Shown here one piece after another: positions 3,158-42,790 of a stretch of DNA of 64,000 nt (position 1 is its first letter; each line of letters opens with the position of its first letter). The position numbers and the translations under genes are program-made. The notes under the pieces were generated by a model, which was not told the origin of the DNA, ran no database searches, and saw nothing but the letters and a program-made list of their open reading frames with translations. The DNA comes from Sphyrna mokarran (Eukaryota). Location: assembly GCA_024679065.1 (NCBI GenBank), contig JAGIQG010000013.1, positions 43,214,001-43,278,000 on the forward strand, written 5' to 3'.

Positions 3158-4139
3158 CTGCAAGCGGTCAGTAAAAGGACAGTTAGGTCACTTCCAGTAG
3201 ACACAGAACAGCAAGTTGAAAAATGGATCTTGTTTATTTTTGTGTAACCAGAGAGTAAAATAATTTTAATAGTGCACCATCTCTATGGAACAGTGCACCC
3301 TTAATCAATCAATCTGGCTTGCAGTAACAATCTCAATCACTGAATAGTGTTTCTGAAATGAGAGATGGTAATTTATAGTAGAAAATATGATATAGTTTCA
3401 AATGAAATTTGATTCCTTAATATGAATATCTAGAAAAAGGAGGTAACTGATTCACATGAATAGGGAGGGAGGAGAGGGATAAGGATCTAGTCAGAGCATA
3501 AGTTTTTTTTAAATTTAGTTAGGTCATCATAATTGGCACAGACTTGAAGGGCTGAAGGGCCTGTTCCTGAACAGTGCTTTTCTTTATTCCCTAAAAATTT
3601 GTTCTCAAAAGAGAGTTAGTACTGATTATTACACATCATATGTATATGATTTTTAAGCTGATAATTTATAGAAGTTACGGAATGAAAGTGCTCCATCAGA
3701 AACATAACCTATTTGTGGATACAATTACTCTGTGCACTGTTTTCACAGCACCTGTTTGGTCTATTTGCATATAGTTCTCTCTGTGCTATTTTAACACAGA
3801 CATTAAACAGTTGCAAACAAACAAAATAAACTGCTCAGTATGAAAACATGAATGTAAGTAAATGCATTTATTAATGTGCTAAAAATAGCACAGTACAGCA
3901 TTAAATTAATTGATATTGTATATATGGGTAAATATGTATCATGCAATATTCTTCTTCAATAACTTTTCAGTAAATATAGGTTGATATTTTTCAGTCCTCA
4001 TACTTTTCCAATGAGAGAGTCTATGGGCTATTTTTTATTCCCATATGGGGCATATATGGAGGTGGGCTATGTTCTAATATAACCAATGATAACATTGGAA
4101 TCTATTATAATGTAATTGATGGCAAAATGATGCGATGAT

Positions 4140-5470
4140 TTAAGCTTAACATCGGAAAATTCTCAAATCCATTATCAAGAACTTTATAGCAGAGCATTTG
4201 GAAAGTAATGGCAGGATGAGATAAAATCAGCATGGATTTATGAACAGGAAATCATTTTGACAAATCTGCTGGAATTCTTTGAAGACTTAACTAGTAGAGT
4301 TGACAAGGGGGTGCCCAGTTGTTGTGGTATGTTTGGAGTTTCAGAAACTGTTTGGCAAAATCCCTCATAAAGAAGATCATCGTGCAAGATTAAAGCACAT
4401 GGGATTAGGAGAAGTGTATTGAGATGGATAGAAAACTGGTTGGCAGAGAGAAAACAAAGAAGAGGAAATAATGGGTTATTTTCAAATTGACAGGCAGTAA
4501 CAAGTGGGGTGCCACAGGATCGGTGCTGGGAGCCTAGCTATTCACTATACTGATTTGGATGATAGAACAAAATGTAACATCTCAAAGTTTACAGATGATA
4601 TCAAGTTGGGTGGTATGGTGAACTGTGACCAGTGATCTGGAAAGATTGGGTGAGTAGGCAAATCAATGGCAGATGCAGTATAATTTGGATAAATGTGAGG
4701 TTATTCACTTTGGAAGCAAAAAAAAAGGTGGCAGATACTACCTGAATGCCTGTAAATTAGGAGAGAGAATTGCAGTGGGACCTGGGGATCATTGTACACT
4801 AGTCACTGAAGGTAAGCATGCAGATACAACAGAAGATAAAGAAGGCAAAAGGCATGCTATTCATCATTGTGAGAGGTTTCGAGTACAGGAGCAGGGATGT
4901 GTTGTTGCAATTATACAGGACCTTGATGAGGCCTTTGTGCAGTTTTGCTCTCCTTTCCTGAGGAAGGATGTTCTTGCTCTCAAGGGAATGCAGTGAAGAT
5001 TATCAGGCTGATTCCAGGGATGGTGGGACTGATGTATGAGGAGAGATTGACCAGGTTAGGATCATTTTTGCCGGAGTTCAGACGAATGAGGAGGGCATCT
5101 CATAGAGACTTATAAAATTCTAACAGGACTAAACAAGATTGATGCAGGAAGGATATTCCCAATAATGGGAATCCAGAAACAGGGATCACAGTCTGAGGAT
5201 TCAAGGTAGACCATTTAGGATGAAGGTGAGGAGACATTTCTTTACCCAAAGCATGGTGAACTTGTGGAATTCATTACCACAGGAACTGGTTGATGCCAAA
5301 ACATTGAATATATTCAAGAAATAGCTGGATATAGCAATTGGGGCAAATGGGATCAAAGGTAATGGGGAAAAAAACAGATAGGCTAACGAGCTGGACAATC
5401 AGCTATGATCGTAATGAATGGCAGCGCAGGCTCCAAGGGCCAAAAGGATTCCTCCTGCTTCTGTTTCTAC
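4140..5470 (+). mobile_element. CR1-clade LINE, decayed 3' part (RT to 3' UTR)
   Basis: QHGF, SGVPQGS and KCEVIHFG remnants with frameshifts; 3' end ctcctgcttctgtttcta. Confidence 0.9.
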
Positions 5471-6816
5471 GATCAGCTGACCTGGTATAAATAGAAAGCA
5501 AATGGGTATTGTGGGGAACTTGCATGACCCAAGACGTGGCCTAAATGTTGGTGTCATGAGTGATGGGTCAGAATCTCCATTTGACCCAACATCAAATCCA
5601 AATCCTACTCACAATCACTATTATTATTTAGATATAAATGGGAGTATATTTCAAATTATATTATCAACCATATAAATTTCTTAAAGCAATCGCTCTGTTA
5701 GATCAATATTAGAACACACAACAAAAAAATTATCAAGACGGTATTGCAGCTTATTAAACATATGCACAATGCAGATTGACATTCCAAGTTAAGCATTCTA
5801 AGATAGTAATATATTTTGCTGACATGTAAAAATAGCAATCAGATGGAAAAAAAAATTTTAAATAAGTTTTCTGCTCGATTAACCTCATTTCCTAATTCAA
5901 TTTAGAACATCAACAGTGGAGTGATAATCATCTGAAAAGCTTTTAAACACTCACAACATGACAAGAAACTGTGACATTTAGCAATATGCAGTAAGCACCT
6001 GTCTATATGAATCTTATTTTATGTAATTCTAAAACATGGCGTGCTTGTACTAAATGGGTTACAGGAATCATGAGTTTCTGAGAAACAGATAGCAACTGTT
6101 AAGTCAATAAAGAAAGTTAATTCAATAAGGATATGCATTATGGATTGAAAAGCAGTTTCCAGTAAAGGGTAACTGCCTCAGCATCACTATTAAGCATTTA
6201 GCAGGATAAAGGCATGGCTGCCTTAGAGGTCACGAAGTATCAAATGAAAGAAAGCAAATAATTTTGTTTCCTTACACATCAAGCTGCAAAGTGCTAATAC
6301 AAATTCAAATAAAGCGCATGGCAGCAAGTTCAGTGCATCTTTGATAATCTGCAAAGTTAAATAATTTTTATATCCACATTATATACAGTTCAGTTGATAT
6401 AGTGAATCATTATGTTTCGGAGATGTGAATTAATCATGGTACAAATAAATGTAAAACAGTTTTACATAAAATATACTGATCAACATGGTATATATGCTAC
6501 ATAATCAATTTGTGAGGTGTACAATATATGGTTTGATGTAAATGTACCTGAAAAGTCTACTTGTTTTATTTTGATCACACTGTTATTGTGTCATTTTTAT
6601 TAAGTTCAATATTCTAATCGATATTTTTTTTCCAAACAGATAGATAAGTTGGATACGAAAACAATGACATTGCGAATTGACAAATAATTCATGATATCAG
6701 ATGAAAATTGGCAGCTACAGCTTTGGATTAATATTAGAAAGATGTTTAAAATGTAACACTATCACAACAGTGCTAATTCAATACAGTTAAATAGTTGATC
6801 TATTGTTTGGTTAAAT

Positions 6817-20200: not shown

Positions 20201-21682
20201 TCTCTGGCCAGTAACTTATAGCAGAGGAGGGTCCTTTATTTTTTTCAGGTCTGAAAAAAGCATCTGCGATGTCCTTTGCCTCTACAACAACAAAATCCAC
20301 AGCAAATTATCAAAAATGCAAACAAGCAAGAATGTAAGTATCCGGGAATCTGTCACATCCTACATGACCAATGATTGCTGTTGTTCTGGCAGTGATGTTA
20401 AGGATGTCAAGCAACAGCAGTAACAAGAACTTAAAAAGGTTTACAGGATGTGATGGCCCAGCAATGGACAGAAATCAGCCCAGTGATAGCAGCAGCTAAC
20501 ATTCTAAAAGTATACGGAGATGCAATTTGCCCATTAACAAGATTAGCAGATATCTAGACAGAATCAATTGTAAATTGCCCTATTAGTACCATCTTTCCTA
20601 GATAACTGACAGATCAGTGAAGGTATACATGTGCTAATTTCTGGAGTCAAGGAATTTGAGAGATGCAGACAGCCAAATCTGCAGAATAAAATACCAACAA
20701 ATTAAATGGTGTAACTGCAAAGACCTTCAGAGGAAAGAAGGCCAAAATACCATACACCTGAAAGGTTATTTTCCATCTAATAGCCAGACAGACTAAAATG
20801 ATCAAGCCTATTCCATCTAACATTTCAAGCCACAACGAACACTTTTGTACCTTTGAACCAGCAAAAGTCAGTTGCCAAGATCTGGGCATCTAAGATGCAC
20901 TTAGGGAATGTGGGTATTGTTTGGGAACTCAGAGGAAATAGTGTGTGCGTTTAATCTTTCATATATTCTTAAACTTATTGTGCATTTATCTTCCTTTCTT
21001 TTACTTTCATAAATACTCTTTATTAATTGTTTGTATAAAGATTGGACTATTTTCTCACTGGCTCTATTGAAGGATCATCCAGACTTGAAATGTTAGCTCT
21101 ATTCTCTCCCCACAGATGCTGTCATATCTGCTGAAATTTTACAGCATTTTCCATTTTTGTTTCAGATTCCAGCAGCTGCAGTATTTTTCTTTTATTTTCT
21201 CACTGGTTTGTACATGGTTTCTCACATTAATCCAAACAGACGTACACCACTATGAATGAGCGTTTCCAGCTGGGACATACTCACGTACAACATCAGTGGC
21301 ATTTGCAACAGGAGCCATGAAGAAATAGGTGGGATCAGGCACAAGGACAACAAAACTCCTTTGAGAAGTGAAGAAATGGACTGCAGGGTGGAGGTGATGA
21401 AGGTCAGAAAAACATGTCAAATAGTGGAATTCCATATTTGAAAATCCACCATTTGGTGGATACCTTCTCCACTGCATTTAATATATCCTGCTTCTGAATA
21501 ACTTTCTTTCCAAGCTAAACAGCTAAGCATTAGATAGCTGGTGAAACTTAGAGAAAAATAAGTTTATACATAATTATTGATTTGGCAATACACAATTTTC
21601 TTTAACAATCTGACATTAACTGTAGCTCAGGAAGACCTGAGTCTATGTCTCCACAGCTCTCCCTCAAATCCATTCCATGTTT

Positions 21683-22055
21683 CATGCAAATCAGCCTCCC
21701 ATCCACTGACTCTGTCTACACTTCCCGCTGCCTTGGCAAAGCAGCCAGCATAATTAAGGACCCCATGCACCCCGGACATTCTCTCTTCCATCTTCTTTCT
21801 TCAGTAAAAAGATACAAAAGTCTGAAGTCATGTACCAACCAACTCAAAAATAGCTTCTTCCCTGCTACTGTCAGACTTTTGAATGGACTTACCTTGCATT
21901 AAGTTGATCTTTGTTCACACCTTAGTTATGACTGTAACACTACATTCTGCACTCTTTCGTTTCCTTCTCTATGAATGGTATGTTTTGTCTGTATAGCGCA
22001 ATAGAAACAATACTTTTCACTGTATGTTAATACATGTGACAATAATAAATCAAAT
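21683..22055 (+). mobile_element. Rex1/Babar-like LINE 3' fragment
   Basis: KAASIIKDPMHPGHSLFHLL...KNSFFP; aataataaatcaaat tail. Confidence 0.8.
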
Positions 22056-22061
22056 GTGTTG

Positions 22062-22388
22062 ATTGCTGCTTGTGTAAAGCATTTTACAGTATTGACTAAG
22101 ATCAAGTGTAATACTGGCATCTGCACTTGGTTGAAGTCATGATGTTACATTGGACTTCATTTGAAGCAATTTTTTAAAGCAGCATCTCAGCCTTTTGCCT
22201 AAGATGCAAATAAGATCAAGCCTTGGAGGAGGTGCAATGCCTGCTCCAATCAGCTTGGATCATGTAGATCAAGCCCAAGACAGGAAAAGGCTTGTTTGTG
22301 TTGTTAGTTTGGATCTGGAATGTCTCACTTATTGAGACTTTGAATTGGGCATTGATTGAATTGAATTGGATATAAACAAAAAGAAAAA
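22062..22388 (+). other. Tandem U2 snRNA-like element with two modules and an A-rich tail; probable U2-derived retroposon
   Basis: 22092-22113 matches U2 nt 17-38 at 20/22; 22182-22205 matches U2 nt 4-27 at 21/24; several hairpins; ends in aaacaaaaagaaaaa. Confidence 0.7.
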
Positions 22389-23089
22389 TCAGTACTAAAT
22401 TTACATTTTACTCCTATGTTTCATTACCTTACTCTTGCAATCTAATAAAACACAATAATCTGAATTTAACATCTCCATAACTATTTTGTTTACTTTACAA
22501 AGATAGTTGGTAAAGTTTCCCTCTAGAATCTTTCTCTAGGGAATTTTCATAGATAGTACACAATGATTGCAGATAATCATCACATAAATCTAGAAAGTTC
22601 AACAGATCTTCCTCAAATGAACCCTTAGAAGGCATGAAGTTTAATGTTTATGAAAGATTGTTCTAGTCCTGAACTATGTTATTCTAGTTTGCTCAACTTT
22701 GACCTTTTAAACTGAGATTGTTAACTGCACTGCCTGTAATGGTAAACATCTTATTTGCTTCCTGACCAGCAGTACTGGACATGGTACAAAAATGCAAAAT
22801 TATTGAAGTTCTGTATAGGTCACTGCAACTTCCTTGTATTTGATGTTTTGGTAAGTAAACATTCAATAAACTTTTTAAGACTGTTCTCACATACCATCAT
22901 TCTCCAATGCATGAACCTGGTTTCACTCTTACTCATCCAGTGGACTGACCTCTTTTTTAAGAATCTGAAAACCTAAGTATTTACTGAAAGAATGAAGCCA
23001 CAAGACTCACCATTTAAACATGTAATGCTAATACACAAAGAATATAAATACTAGTAACTATACTCTATCTTAAATTAAAGATATTGAAA

Positions 23090-25960
23090 GAACAGTGAAC
23101 ACTGTTATCAATACTACTTCGAACTTAACTCAAAATTACTTTCTAAAGCCATTCGAATAACACCCACAAAGTCAGACACTAAGAAACTGGAAGACGAGCC
23201 AAATGATCCAAGTACTGTTCCCAAAGACTGTATAAGGGTCGAGATTTCTTGGACCTTCCATTTACTCCTGAAAAGGCTATCTCTTCAAATCGCCTTCAAC
23301 CATTCCATAATTGCAGATGGCCCGTTCAACACAGACATTGCTAATATCTTACATGTAGCCATCTTGATTCTGGATTCTCCCGCTTGTAATCATCATAGAA
23401 TCCCCTAAGGAAGCCATTCAGCCCATCAAGCCTGCACTGACAACATTCCCACCTTATCCCCTAACTCCACACATTTACTCTACTAATCCACCCAAAACTA
23501 GGGTCAATTTAGCATGGTCAGTAATGATTTATAACTCTCGAGTTTCTGTCCATAAACACTCTCTCTCCATTCTCAGCTTGACGATCTTCAGAAATCCAAC
23601 TTACTTAGAAGATCCTTCAGTTATCAAGGGTTTTAAAAATCCTTGCCAGCCCACACAGAATTTCAATTGTATCCTGTTTGAAAGAAATATCTCGTGCTTT
23701 GCAGTCAGTTTATTCTACACACCTTCCCTCATAAGTAACTTTTTTTTTGACTATTTCTATCATTTAGCACCCAGTCACCTTGGTCATGTGATCAGTTACT
23801 AGAAACCGGGTGCTTTTCCAGAAATCATTTCCTAGAGAAGCCTAGTTCTTAAAGAGACCATCACACCACATAGAGGACATGGGTTTTCTTGTAGTCTTCC
23901 CAATCCCCCAAAGGAAAAAGCACATAAGAACATGAGAAATAGAAGCAGGAGTAGTCCATCCAGCCCCTCAAGCCTGCCCTGCCATTCAATAAGATCATGG
24001 CTGATTTGAAATGGATCAGTTCCACTTCCTCGCTTTATCCCCATAACCCTTAATTCCCTTGCTTATTAGAAACCTATCCCCCGTGACTTAAATATATTCA
24101 GCAAAGTAGCCTCCACCACTTCAACTGGCAGAGAATTCCAAAGATTCACCACCCTTTGAGTGAAGAAGTTCTTCCTCAACACTGCTCTAAACCGTCCTGC
24201 CACCCTTTCTAAGCGGGAAGAATTTCTTTATCTCTACCCTATCCATCCCCTTCATTATCTTATATGTCTCTATAAGATCCCCCCTCAACTTTCTAAACTC
24301 CAACGAATACAAACCTAATCCAATCAATCTCTCCCAATAGGTTAACCCCTCATCTCCAGTATCAGTCTAGTGTACCTTCTCTGCACTCCCTCCAAGGCCA
24401 ATATATCCTTCTGCAAATGTGGCGACCAAAACTACACACAGTACTCCAGCTGCAGCCTCACCAGCACCTTGTAGAGTTGCAACAGAACCTCCCTACTTTT
24501 ATATTCTAACCCCCTCACTATAAAGGCCAACATCCCATTCACCTTCTTGATCACCTGCTGCACCTGTAGACTGGGTTTTAGCGATTCATGCACAAGGACT
24601 CCCAGGTCCCTCTGCACTGTAGCATGCTGCAGCTTTTCGCCTTTTAAATAATAATCCCTCTTACTATTATTTCTACCAAAGTGGAGAACCTCATACTTAC
24701 TAACATTATACTCCATCTGCCAGATCCTCGTCCACTCACTCAACCTATTCAGATCTCTCTGCAGACTTTCCACACCCTCCATGCAATTTGCTTTTCCACT
24801 CATCTTTGTATCATCAGCAAATTTCATTACCCTACACTCAGCCCCTTCCTCCAGATCATCTATGTAAATGGTAAACAGTTGAAGTCCCAGCACCGATCCC
24901 TAGGACACTCCACTAGTCACCAACTGCCAACCAGAATAGCACCCATTGATTCCTACTCTCTGTTTCCTATTAGACAACCAATCCTCTATCCACGCTAACA
25001 CTTTACCCCCAACTCCTTGCACCTTAACCTTTTGCAGCAATCTTTTGTGAGGCACCTTATCAAACACCTTTTGGAAATCTAAAAACACCACATCCATCAG
25101 TTCCCCTCTATCTACCACACTAGTCACTTCCTCATAGAAATCCAATAAATTTGTCAAACACGATTTCCCCTGAATGAATCTGTGCTGTGTCTGCTTGATC
25201 AAACCATTCTTTTCTGGATGCCTTGCTATTTCTTCTTTGATGAGGGATTCAAGCATTTTTCCCACTACAGACATTAAACTAACCGGCCTATAATTCCCTG
25301 CCTTTTGCCTGCTACCTTTTTTAAACAGCGGCATAATATTAGCCATTTTCCAATCTTCCGGCACTTCTCCGGAGTCCAGCGAATTTTGATAAACATCACA
25401 CTTGTTATAACCAGAGAATTACTTGCAATGCTTTTTTTTCCCTCCTCCCATTACCTCTGGAATTTTTCAAGGCTATATCTTTGACTTGTTAAATCTCTCA
25501 TCAAGTTGCAGCCTCAAGTGACATTACCCAAAAACAGAATCAACTTCCACAGGGACGCTACCAACACCCAACTTTCTATTTTAATTGTTAACTGTCTTTA
25601 AATTGTCAGACTGTTCAAGTTACCCTGACTCCTCATGGTTTTGAGCTTAACATATAAACTTTTCTCTTCAACTCCGTGAAACATTTATTTGGAAGTTGAG
25701 GTATAGCATTTGAGGCGCGGTCCACTTTAGCTTTCACTACTTCATAGAAGTTGATGAGGCAGATTTTCCCCTTCTGATATCATACTGATTGTAGTTTATA
25801 AAGTTGTGAGAAAGAAACCTTCAAACTTACTCTTGCTAATTCTGAAATCAGCTTTGGGCATCTTTTTAATGGCTTCAGTTTTAATAGAATTCTTGCTTGT
25901 GAAAGTTTATTGCAAAGACCTCTTTCAAACTATACAATTTTCACACATCAATAACATTTT
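23090..25960 (-). mobile_element. Old L1/Tx1-like ORF2 remnants interrupted by a SINE (about 23395-23520) and by the CR1 above
   Basis: The minus-strand frame near 23190-23360 reads ...AIMEWLKAI...YSLWEQYLDHL, like an L1 ORF2 C-terminus; highly decayed. Confidence 0.4.
23922..25392 (-). mobile_element. CR1-clade LINE, 5'-truncated, RT largely readable
   Basis: ORFs 24900-25364 (NYRPVSL, DFQKVFDKVPH) and 24432-24893 (KFADDTK); cataagaacat tail. Confidence 0.95.
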
Positions 25961-30667: not shown

Positions 30668-32230
30668 ATAACTAAATTTGCATTCATATGTACCATAGAT
30701 GATCCTGTTTGTAAGCAGTTCACAGAAAGGATATTTTGCAGTTAAACGTTTTCTAAAGTAAATAGTCAGCCATATTTTTTACGAAGGTTAGTTTATGTTT
30801 ATGTCTATTTTCTGTCGCAGAGTCAGCTTAAATTTATTGTTTCTTCTTTTAGCAATTTCTAATTGTTTTGTCCCATTTATGATCTTTTGAACTTTACTGG
30901 ATTAATTGTCTTGTTCTTTATGACACCGCTTCAAAGTCTCTTTGTTTAAGTAGCTGGTTAACCCCCTCAAATTGACAGTTTGTTAGACAGGTTTGGACGC
31001 TTTTTTGTAAACATAGTGTATCCTAATCTCAAATAATCTAATTCTAGCCTATTCCAATGATTTGCACCTCAAAAACAAGCAAAGAAATTGCACAGAAACA
31101 CTGCTCATGTCAAAACAGTGGGAGCACTTGGTGAAAATCCTCCAGCCATAATGAGTGGTTCCATCCTAACCAAGCAGCACAAGCAATCATCCAATGAGAC
31201 CAACTAACTTTTCCAGAGATTGGCTCTTTTGCTCACACTTCAGGGTTTTTGTTTCTCACTTATTATTCAGGCCTGCACGATAATAGAACCATTACATGTA
31301 CAACATAGGTATTATTTTAAGATACTGGCTGAAGCTGGTACTCAGTTCAGCAACAAGCAGTAGAGTAAATGTAAGCAAGCATAAGCAAAACCAGTTCATT
31401 TTCTAATATTAGAAGAGAGTGGTGTGGAAGTATCAACTCTCTTTTATCAGTAAGGTACATTCATGAATAAATTTACAAGAATGCACTTCCTGGGCACCTT
31501 TTCAAATTTGATTTTGCACCAGGTTGCAGTTATATCCAAAGCTCCAAGCGGTGGGGTCCATTAACTAGTGATCGTCTGGCACCTATTAGGAGCAATGCAG
31601 CTGTCAAGCCACTAACCAGAACCTCAAGTTAGGGAGTTTTACCGTTGGTGGGATTGGTGTCTGGCAGGGGCTTCCTGCCACAAGGAGATGGGAAACAAAA
31701 TTAAATATTTCAATTGATCATTAATGGTCATTTTACCAGGTAAGGAGATTTTTTTTTATTCAAAGGAGGATGCAGGTAGGGAAGGCAGCCCCAACCTCAA
31801 GATCCTGGTAATAACCTCAGAGGCGTTTCTGCTTCATGGTATCATCGGTATTGTTTTATATATAAATGTTTCTTTAGCCAGGTGGCGTTGCTGAACTGCT
31901 GGCCCTCTGATTGCGCCAACAGCTCTAGGGAGAGGGTGACCACGCTTCACAAAACAGCAATCCCACCAGGAGCTGTTGCCTGTAAAATTCAAGGAGTCCA
32001 AATGCATTTCAAGCCACTTGTTTCCAAACAAAATACATCACTTTTTTCACTTTTTTTAGAAATTGCTTCTCATTTACTGAAACATGATGCATAGGACCAC
32101 TAAAATGGAACATGAACAACAGATGGAAAAATTAATACCACCTCAGCTTGCAGCAAATTGCATGCATGGCAATTCTGAAAAGTGAAACCATGGCATGACC
32201 TTGGGAACCACATAGAATAACAAACATTAC

Positions 32231-32574
32231 CTGGTGTGGCATACTGCATTATTGCCACAGACTTCCCTCCAGGGGCAGCACACATATCGAGCACACTCTC
32301 GCCATCTCGTACATTCAATGCAAGGACAGGCAACAAAGAGGCTGCATTCAGAAGATAATACTGCTTCAACCTTTCAGCATGGTGTCGAAGTCTGGGAAGC
32401 CGGCACTGGACGTTGCCGATATAACATCGTAAAGAACGCTGGGCAAAAGGCAAAACATCTGGTAGGAAATTGGAATATCCCTGAGATTGAAGGCACTGTT
32501 CAAATGTCACACATTGGCTAAACTTGTTCACAAGCACTGCATACTGCCAGCTGGAAGGAAGCAGGAGCACTTCT
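32231..32574 (-). CDS. NSUN3: NSUN3 coding exon 3 with SAM-binding motif I (VLDMCAAPGGKS)
   Basis: tttcag|A acceptor and G|gtaatg donor; 344 nt; YYLLNAASLLPVLAL and VLDMCAAPGGKS are NOL1/NOP2/Sun-family motifs. Confidence 0.96.
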
Positions 32575-33146
32575 CTGAAAGACAACCAAACGAGATAAAT
32601 CAGTGCAAGTTAAACTGTTACAGCACTGTAACAGGAGCAGGGGAATGTTGTTGGAGCAGGAAGCTTGAAATTTGACCTAAAATCTGAGATGAAAGGAATG
32701 ACTGATATCTAGATATTCAATATTTCCACAATTTAATCATGATTATAAGAAGATAGAGATTATGTTTTCTCCACGAGATTATATGCTGTTGTGTTGCACA
32801 AAGTGCATTTTGGAATATGCCCTTGCTGGAGCAGCTCAATTCTCTGCTGAGTGGTTAACAAAAGGATTATATGCTGGCAATCTCAAATAAAAATCAAATC
32901 AATAATATTTAAATGTCCAAATTCAGCAAGTTAGACAGCAACATAAGGCATTCTATTTGCCCAATGAGGACTGTACCTTGTCTTTTTCTAAACATACATC
33001 CAAATTCCAAAGGACAGAAAACTTTATTGGTTAGCAGAGCCATTTCTTGGCGGCCCAAGTGAGTGCAAGGCTGCTGTTGAAGAATAACCAGCTAAAAAGA
33101 TGCTGTCTATCAGTGCAGAGCACTATAAGCACTCTGTTACATTGGT

Positions 33147-41384: not shown

Positions 41385-41700
41385 GCTCTGCCCATCGAGC
41401 AGCTGGCAGCCCCTTTCCCCGGGAGTCCCCGGCTCCGGCCCCGGCTCTCACCTGCTGCCGAGGCCTGGATTCGGGCCCGGGGCCGGCGCTGCTGCCGCTC
41501 CGCGCGGCGGCCGTCACAGATTTACAGCGGGCGAGGGAGGCAGCGAGACGGGCGCTGCAGGCGGCCTGGACCAGGAGAGGGGCGGCGGCAGCTCCCGGAG
41601 CCATCGCGACCGCCGGGCCGCCTCTGCACAAGAGTTTCACCGAGGCCGCGCTACAGGAACCGGGGATCCACTGGGACCCGCCCCCCCCGCCCCCCGACAC
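41385..41700 (-). promoter_or_regulatory. CpG island and NSUN3 promoter with GC boxes
   Basis: The only CpG-dense segment in a CpG-depleted window; overlaps the ATG; tandem GGGGCGGG boxes on the minus strand at about 41677-41695. Confidence 0.85.
41452..41604 (-). CDS. NSUN3: NSUN3 coding exon 1 (MAPGAAAAPLLVQAACSARLAASLARCKSVTAAARSGSSAGPGPESRPRQQ)
   Basis: ATG in good Kozak context (gtcgcgATGG) inside a CpG island; ends CAG|gtgaga in phase 0, matching the phase-0 start of exon 2. Ala/Arg/Ser-rich, presequence-like. No homology check was possible for this exon. Confidence 0.75.
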
Positions 41701-42790
41701 ATCCCCAGACAGAACCCCAAACAGATCCCTCACCCCCACCCTCACACCCCCTCCCTGACACATCCCCAGACAGAACCAAACAGATCCCTCACCCCACCCT
41801 CACACCCCCTCCTGACACATCCCCAGACAGATCAGCACACAGACACCACCCCCCCCCTCCCCGCCACAAACCCCCCCGCAACACATCCCCTGACAGATCC
41901 CCCACCCTACCCCCCACAACCTCCCCCGACACATCCCCAAACAGATCGCCTGACGGATCCCCCACCCCCACCACACTCCCGGGACACACATCCCCAGACA
42001 GATCCCCAAACAGATCCCCCCCCCCACACACCCTCCCAGACACTTCCCAAACAGATCAGCACACAGACACCCCCCCACAACGCCCCCCTCACCCATCACC
42101 CCCAACACATCCCCAGACAGAACCCCAAACAGATCCCTCATCCCCACCCTCACACCCCTCCCCTGACACATCCCCAGACAGATCAGCACACAGACACCAC
42201 CCTCCCCCCCCCCAACACATCCCCTGACAGATCCCCCACCTCACCCCCCACAACCCTCCCCCGACACATCCCCCAAACAGATCGCCGACGGATCCCACCC
42301 CCACCACACCTCCCGGACACATCCCAGACAGATCCCCAAACAGATCCCCCAACCCCAACACCCTCCCAGACACATTCCCAAACAGATCAGCACACAGACA
42401 CCCCCCACAACGCCCCCCCCCACCACATCCCCCAACACATCCCCTGACAGCCACCCCCACACCCGCCCCCGGACACATACCCAAACAGATCCTGACAGAC
42501 CCCCACCCACCACTACTCCTACACCCTCCCCCCAGACACATACCCAAATAGATCCCCTGACAGACACCCCACCCTCACCCCCAACAGATACATCCCCAGA
42601 CAGACCCCCCCACCCCCACTGGACACATCCCCAGACATCCCCTGACAGACACCCCCCTACCTCCACCGGACAGATCCCCAGACAGACCCACCCCTGGACA
42701 GATCCCCAGACGGCCTTCCTCTCTTCCCCCACCAATTCTAAGATCAATCTCAGACAGATCCCAGGACAGATTCCCAGACAGACCCTCAGG
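41696..42790. repeat. C-rich minisatellite (ACACATCCCC / CAGACAGATCCCC units) with a higher-order duplication
   Basis: Repeated units are directly visible; the block starting near 41697 recurs near 42105. Confidence 0.92.

Follow-up and report, generated by a model that had tools for sequence, protein, structure and literature searches.

A short A-tailed retroposon with a U2 snRNA-derived head in Sphyrna mokarran, its insertions in U2 genes, and its likely transcription

SINEs headed by small nuclear RNA (snRNA) sequence lack an internal promoter, and the way they are transcribed was an open question when the crocodilian elements SINEU-1 to SINEU-3 were described (PMC4494074). The same report found no SINEU outside crocodilians and noted a preference of these elements for a Mariner transposon, Mariner-N4_AMi. 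U2 genes are also the targets of Keno and Utopia, and two reports (PMC4640811, PMC4494074) describe disrupted U2 genes without their first 38 bp. R2 is co-transcribed with 28S rRNA genes, as cited in PMC4494074. Finally, U2 processed pseudogenes and snRNA-L1 chimeras join a U2 5′ fragment to other sequence and an A tail.

The 64,000-nucleotide stretch of S. mokarran DNA analyzed here (the window) carries a copy of an element that has much in common with SINEU (PMC4494074). Both have a U2-derived head, a length below 500 bp, a poly(A) tail, and an internal oligo-T run that argues against transcription by Pol III. Both also contain repeated U2-derived segments, have no 3′ end in common with a LINE (here none was found between the element and its companion LINE), form tandems around target duplications, and occur with Tx1-type LINEs that carry U1/U2 heads. 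Furthermore, both are replicated as a unit, as judged here by fixed junctions and subfamilies, and not as a sum of chimeras. Unlike SINEU, the hammerhead element has copies that interrupt U2 genes or follow U2 promoters, and its head is predicted to pair with its own inverted copy. The Mariner preference is not seen either, since 158 copies share no 5′ extension or flank other than tails and U2 promoter sequence. The best reading of these class features is a SINEU-type element outside crocodilians.

The Keno/Utopia site recurs in this genome, where the SINE and its companion LINE are followed by U2 sequence from nt 38-40 at several loci. However, Keno is strictly U2-specific and autonomous, with an APE endonuclease and reverse transcriptase of the Tx1 clade, whereas this SINE is non-coding, 310 nt long, and mostly dispersed in copies without U2 flanks. 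The companion LINE is unlike Keno in being only loosely U2-specific. The element is neither Keno nor a U2 gene. Reliance on the promoter of a target gene, which we infer here, would be shared with R2, but the SINE is non-autonomous, would use an snRNA Pol II promoter, and inserts mostly off target. Unlike U2 pseudogenes and chimeras, it has a fixed junction, subfamilies, and thousands of copies, as expected of a unit replicated whole. We found no published report of such a family outside crocodilians in the accessible literature, and a Dfam or Repbase entry may exist. From the genomic evidence below, we consider it probable that this short A-tailed, U2-headed retroposon inserted into U2 genes, was likely transcribed from their promoters, and was likely copied by a co-occurring L1/Tx1-type (Keno-like) LINE.

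The window copy and its layout

Window positions 22092-22388 hold a 5′-truncated copy of an A-tailed, U2-headed retroposon of about 310 nt. This copy is dead, and the short mobile element to which it belongs numbers thousands of copies genome-wide. The features are as follows (with the evidence for each in parentheses).

22062-22086, no strand: unique flank outside the element (genome search, family alignment)
22087-22091, plus strand: possible 5-nt target-site duplication, weak, with its partner at 22390-22394 (window sequence)
22092-22388, plus strand: the entire U2-headed SINE copy, of the beta subfamily and 5′-truncated at U2 nt 17 (91% to the beta majority)
22092-22113, plus strand: U2 head, nt 17-38; nt 1-37 or 1-40 in full copies (match to U2 gene, family alignment)
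22119-22146, plus strand: inverted copy of the head, predicted to form a long rod with the head over U2 nt 20-39 (folding, duplex test)
22154-22175, plus strand: small hairpin and then a U-run in an Sm-like position, with no closing G, that would stop Pol III (folding, copy alignment)
22182-22207, plus strand: U2 stem-loop I (nt 4-27) a second time, with three extra pairs closing it (U2 match, folding)
22213-22261, plus strand: stem unit 1, consisting of a U2 nt 24-31 arm, an inner hairpin, and a complementary arm (folding, unit comparison)
22266-22315, plus strand: stem unit 2, a duplicate of unit 1 with four of six inner pairs changed on both sides (unit comparison)
22296-22372, plus strand: 3′ third, in weak collinearity with U2 nt 40-123 that reaches significance in one subfamily only (local alignment)
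22322-22338, plus strand: hairpin like U2 stem IIb, with a T-A/C-G compensatory pair between subfamilies (folding, copy alignment)
22378-22388, plus strand: A-rich tail (window sequence)

An initial annotation of the window had described two tandem U2-like modules here, and every sequence string that it quoted is present where it was placed. Our reference was the U2 gene of the same genome, for which Rfam RF00004 located an array of four copies on one contig (G000:C949). Against this gene, the first module matches U2 nt 17-38 at 20 of 22 positions (E = 1e-5) and the second matches nt 4-27 at 21 of 24 (E = 5e-5), as had been proposed. The first module had been given a longer start (22062-22091) composed of ATTGCTGCT and an “extra hairpin,” but this segment lies outside the element. 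Position 22092, which corresponds to U2 nt 17, is where the aligned family starts, and a 70-nt 5′ piece matched nothing in the genome besides itself. Likewise, when the first 30 nt are compared with the flanks of other copies, the best likeness ranks at the 1% level among 12,403 pairs, which is the chance expectation for the best of 157. Therefore, the longer start and its hairpin were rejected as parts of the element. The 5-nt repeat CAGTA on both sides of 22092-22388 may be a target duplication, although a weak one.

The 3′ end of another repeat (21640-22055) with a short ATCAA-type tail ends 36 nt upstream of the element. We take this repeat to be Rex1/Babar-like; a Pfam search of it gave no match. 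Elsewhere in the window are broken LINE reverse transcriptase frames on the minus strand (24435-25418, PF00078), a minus-strand exon of an RsmB/NSUN-type RNA methyltransferase (32103-32609, PF01189, E = 1e-5), C-rich and G-rich tandem arrays (41691-42684 and 622-881), and a GC-rich stretch near 41.3-41.8 kb that may be a promoter.

In the left half of the element, the U2 head is followed by an inverted copy of U2 nt 11-39. Plain alignment detects this arm weakly (p = 0.04-0.4), and the claim thus rests on a duplex-energy test in which the head/arm duplex was beaten by 0, 2, and 0 of 2,000 shuffles in three groups. Compared to an exact complement, the arm has seven to nine transitions, all of which keep a G-U pair and none of which break pairing, along with four transversions. 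The head is identical to U2 while its paired arm has changed. No match to U2 nt 41-191 was found in the left body (p of about 0.6), and no U1 pieces were found in the SINE. In the right half, the two stem units are duplicates (p = 0.0002), and each opens with U2 nt 24-31. The four inner pairs that differ between them differ on both sides, and pairing is kept in all. The 3′ third, taken from unit 2 on, has its best local alignment in the same order as U2 nt 40-123, which picks up at the point where the head ends, with p values of 0.002-0.01 for alpha1, 0.05-0.24 for alpha2 and beta, 0.13 for the window copy, and 0.10-0.76 for controls. The hairpin of unit 1 was also compared to U2 stem III (9 of 10 positions, p = 0.04-0.33 by subfamily), and we make no claim for it.

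Several of the hairpins proposed in the initial annotation could be examined in these folds. The one likened to U2 stem IIb is confirmed, and one of its pairs is T-A in 88, C-G in 24, T-G in 21, and C-A in 7 of 149 copies. The compensatory counts, here and between the stem units, represent few events along one lineage. The fold z-score of the window copy is −2.1, and those of the subfamily majorities lie between −4.4 and −6.0, a level that none of 150 shuffles reached. In addition, differences between subfamilies break fewer pairs than random placement would (p = 0.02-0.04 in four non-independent tests). The fold scores and compensatory pairs support the earlier notion of a structured ancestral RNA, every structure described here being a predicted one. 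Two others of the proposed structures, a stem of TGAAGTC with GACTTCA and a hairpin reading GCTTGGATC-atgta-GATCAAGC, can form as alternative pairings, but minimum-energy folds place their arms in other stems.

A different outcome was obtained for the proposed Sm-like site. The canonical Sm site consensus ends in G. A run of T4-T6 is recognizable in 85 of 100 copies examined, and in 81 of these 85 the base after the run is A, with the closing G absent. We therefore reject a canonical Sm site, and the idea that the RNA borrows Sm machinery is unsupported. Folding also predicts that the left half pairs the branch-site nucleotides (U2 nt 33-38) and that in the right half a hairpin takes their place. 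With these nucleotides masked or replaced, the SINE RNA would not be expected to act as U2 in splicing. The right-half loss of nt 32-39 may be a scar of insertion at that site.

Family size, subfamilies, and age

The genome contains 2,058 matches to a 26-mer pattern at one mismatch or fewer, and a control gave none. Eight of 17 copies met incidentally carry the 26-mer, which yields an estimate of about 4,400 copies (3,900-6,700 by divergence). A DNA search of the genome with the window copy returned 3,326 candidates, of which the best 40 were scored at 84-87%. Single-copy status, which would have spoken against a mobile family, is thus contradicted by thousands of dispersed copies. At least 2,058 copies, A tails, target duplications, and subfamilies bear out the view of a U2-derived multicopy retroposon.

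We sampled the first 90 of 100 listed exact 26-mer matches, which were ordered by position and lie on contigs C1, C2, and C113. Seventy-eight of these copies begin within U2 nt 1-23 (19 of the 90 exactly at nt 1), and the other 12 are cut inside the body. This distribution led us to reject the alternative that the sequence is the 3′ UTR of a LINE; the copies are free-standing. Four of the 12 truncated copies (L106, L109, L172, and L182) begin where the second U2 module does, at positions 107-117, which could mean either that the right half exists as a monomer or that reverse transcription paused at the hairpin. Among copies that have a tail and a whole 3′ end, 16 of 74 are flanked by target duplications, mostly 10-19 nt long, that score beyond the 99th percentile for mismatched pairs, and the same holds for 6 of the first 30 loci. 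No U2-like target preference was found among the dispersed copies in the sample of 90.

Among 100 copies, 62 belong to alpha (head U2 nt 1-40) and 38, including the window copy, are beta-type (head mostly nt 1-37). The junction between head and body is fixed within each subfamily, several subfamilies are of equal age, and copies are about 92% like the majority of their own group. No young or intact copy was found among the 40 scored, and a search with a near-majority copy gave 94% for its best match to another copy. The family looks extinct in this genome. Mutation rates at paired and unpaired sites are 0.068 and 0.057 in alpha1, 0.060 and 0.062 in alpha2, and 0.072 and 0.125 in beta, where the difference is probably an effect of mixed subfamilies. 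Individual copies of the alpha groups decay neutrally, while pairs are conserved at the subfamily level. Therefore, structure was kept in the source lineage and not in the copies.

Two further searches bear on how copies appear in databases. The window copy gave no match to the Rfam U2 model at E ≤ 10, and three full-head copies (L127, L150, and L273; 41-48 bits) scored 40.6, 45.2, and 47.7 bits, near the cut-off of 46; such copies may be annotated as U2 genes. At least half of the sampled sequence words are present in 12 public run rows that carry four organism labels plus one unlabeled study, one of which is possibly the assembly source. No RNA run is among those listed.

U2 genes, U2 promoters, and a companion LINE

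The live U2 array (G000:C949:17326629-17351148) has four genes at 8-kb spacing. About 40 kb beyond it, a U2 gene is interrupted by the SINE between nt 37 and 40. This locus (G000:C949:17389776-17390226) consists of a promoter remnant, U2 nt 4-37, the SINE body, an A tail, U2 nt 40-191, and the U2 3′ flank. PMC4640811 gives the same site in U2 for Keno and Utopia. Scanning the whole genome for an A-run that precedes U2 nt 40 gave five loci, two with this SINE, two with a LINE tail, and one with neither; the two U2-flanked SINE copies were thus found by searching for that flank. Insertion at the Keno site (U2 nt 37/38) is seen at these two SINE loci and at several LINE junctions, and the suggested tie to the Keno/Utopia site, like that of kinship in kind with SINEU, is supported. 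Nearby on this contig (17393462-17393607), a U2 remnant (nt 46-191) stands behind the tail of a LINE that is of the same type but more distant.

Eight matches were obtained with the U2 promoter as query; six are at U2 genes and two are parts of one locus on contig C557. There, the promoter runs into a SINE head and body interrupted by a LINE piece. In all, three decayed SINE copies lie behind U2 promoter sequence, one on C557 and two on C949. A 19-nt promoter variant, which was drawn from the same three loci so that only its absence elsewhere is informative, has exact matches only at these loci, each just 5′ of the SINE head, and one unrelated site with one mismatch. The three copies are 80-87% identical to the nearest majority, below the average of about 92%, and one has only about 45 nt of promoter-like flank. 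A full promoter match was found in 1 of 157 other copies tested. These three loci may be passive insertions and not sources.

The LINE that adjoins pieces of U2 nt 38-57 is about 5.3 kb long and carries a ZCCHC3-like ORF1 and a reverse transcriptase. Its closest named relative is a ray protein (75%), in line with the cartilaginous fish host that the initial annotation suggested. The relatives have an endonuclease-reverse transcriptase-zinc finger layout and carry PF03372, and from this domain layout we take the LINE to be of L1/Tx1 type; its own decayed endonuclease frame gave no Pfam match. The family (L231-L235, L056, L061, L066, and L067-L102) has about 1,000 3′ ends and U2- or U1/U2-derived heads, and appears to be a counterpart of Keno and Tx1-Mar. 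Pieces of U2 nt 38-57 lie between its tandem copies, as though a source copy had occupied a U2 gene with duplication of 20 nt. Of five long stretches, four begin at the 5′ end with sequence that resembles U2 or U1, and the fifth is 5′-truncated. One (L231) has U2 nt 14-58 inside a target duplication, another has U2 nt 6-35, one joins U1 nt 5-25 to U2 nt 32-52, and one has a weaker version of the same. BLAST with the U1 of this genome matched 21 of 21 positions in L234 and, weakly, 18 of 20 in L235, and the Rfam U1 model was not significant on a LINE head (E = 7.2).

SINE and LINE copies adjoin each other far above chance. A SINE copy lies within 1.5 kb of 6 of 30 LINE 3′ ends, three times directly behind the tail, and 2 of the 90 sampled SINE copies abut the LINE (one being a locus already among the 30). 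Copies of the LINE are about 84% alike, as are those of the SINE, and the two are therefore equally old. Two SINE copies abut the tail of a more distant LINE, and SINE and companion LINE have no 3′ sequence in common, so that the companion LINE is one candidate for the exact partner of the SINE. Among 173 SINE copies whose 3′ end is whole, 15 are succeeded by a further copy or by its head, often across a spacer that equals the target duplication, a pattern of repeated insertion at one site. One locus (L233, G000:C557:49162000-49171999) holds two LINE and four SINE copies from successive insertions.

A proposed life cycle and its alternatives

The arrangement of these loci is consistent with a cycle in which a copy in a U2 gene would be read by Pol II from U2 +1, giving an RNA of head, body, and A tail. 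LINE enzymes would then prime on the A tail and insert the SINE, mostly at unspecific sites. On occasion, a copy would land at U2 nt 37/38, where its head would match the upstream target and join it without a long duplication. Each landing in a U2 gene would supply a fresh promoter and a fresh, unmutated head. Transcription from captured U2 promoters is likely.

The copies could instead be retropseudogenes of a lineage-specific host U2-variant RNA that had a cellular job and a U2-type promoter. The strong conserved fold, the compensatory changes in the source lineage, the one promoter variant common to three loci, and the presence of sequence words under several organism labels would all fit such an RNA. 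However, selfish RNAs also keep structure, the promoter loci are decayed, an A tail is present at every source-like locus, a canonical Sm site is absent, and several subfamilies are of equal age. No intact gene was found when the top candidates were scored, the best other match to a near-majority copy being 94%. We regard this explanation as unlikely. The earlier suggestion of a variant-snRNA gene family is less likely, because the copies are tailed, flanked by target duplications, and, in the two homogeneous subfamilies, mutated equally at paired and unpaired sites, with no intact gene found among the top candidates. A marginally smaller chance is given to the same SINE having been transcribed from chance flanking Pol II promoters, with its U2-gene insertions as dead ends. 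Kojima proposed such flank-driven transcription for SINEU (PMC4494074), and the promoter loci here are few and decayed, but the 19 of 90 copies that begin exactly at U2 nt 1, the lack of a common 5′ extension among 158 flanks except tails and the U2 promoter, and a head that stayed identical to U2 while its arm changed all argue against it.

Two other origins are harder to reconcile with the family. Each copy might be an independent template-switch chimera between U2 snRNA and the 3′ end of a LINE or of another RNA, and the U2 heads of the LINE do vary in length, but the head-body junction is fixed in each subfamily, the head pairs with the body, and none of the 90 sampled copies extends upstream into a longer body. 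This origin is very improbable. An ordinary truncated U2 pseudogene with chance hairpins might be proposed from the window copy alone, given its missing Rfam U2 match and fold z-score of only −2.1. The whole 310-nt layout common to thousands of copies refutes this reading, to which we attach almost no weight.

Promoter capture by a U2-headed retroposon, the account that we prefer, can be taken a step further with more doubt than belief. The SINE may be almost wholly rearranged U2, and its RNA a disarmed U2 mimic with the branch-site region masked or replaced, whose promoter and head would be renewed by re-insertion at the Keno site. Such a model would answer how SINEU-type elements are transcribed and would do so from a second vertebrate lineage.

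With copies at the Keno site of a U2 gene and others behind U2 promoter sequence, promoter capture becomes directly testable for a class of SINEs without an internal promoter. Annotations can overcount U2 genes through full-head copies, which score near the Rfam U2 cut-off. The predicted masking of the branch site suggests how a parasite could carry the active part of U2 without disturbing splicing. If the element is of SINEU type, the class would extend beyond crocodilians, accompanied by a parallel set of snRNA-headed LINEs.
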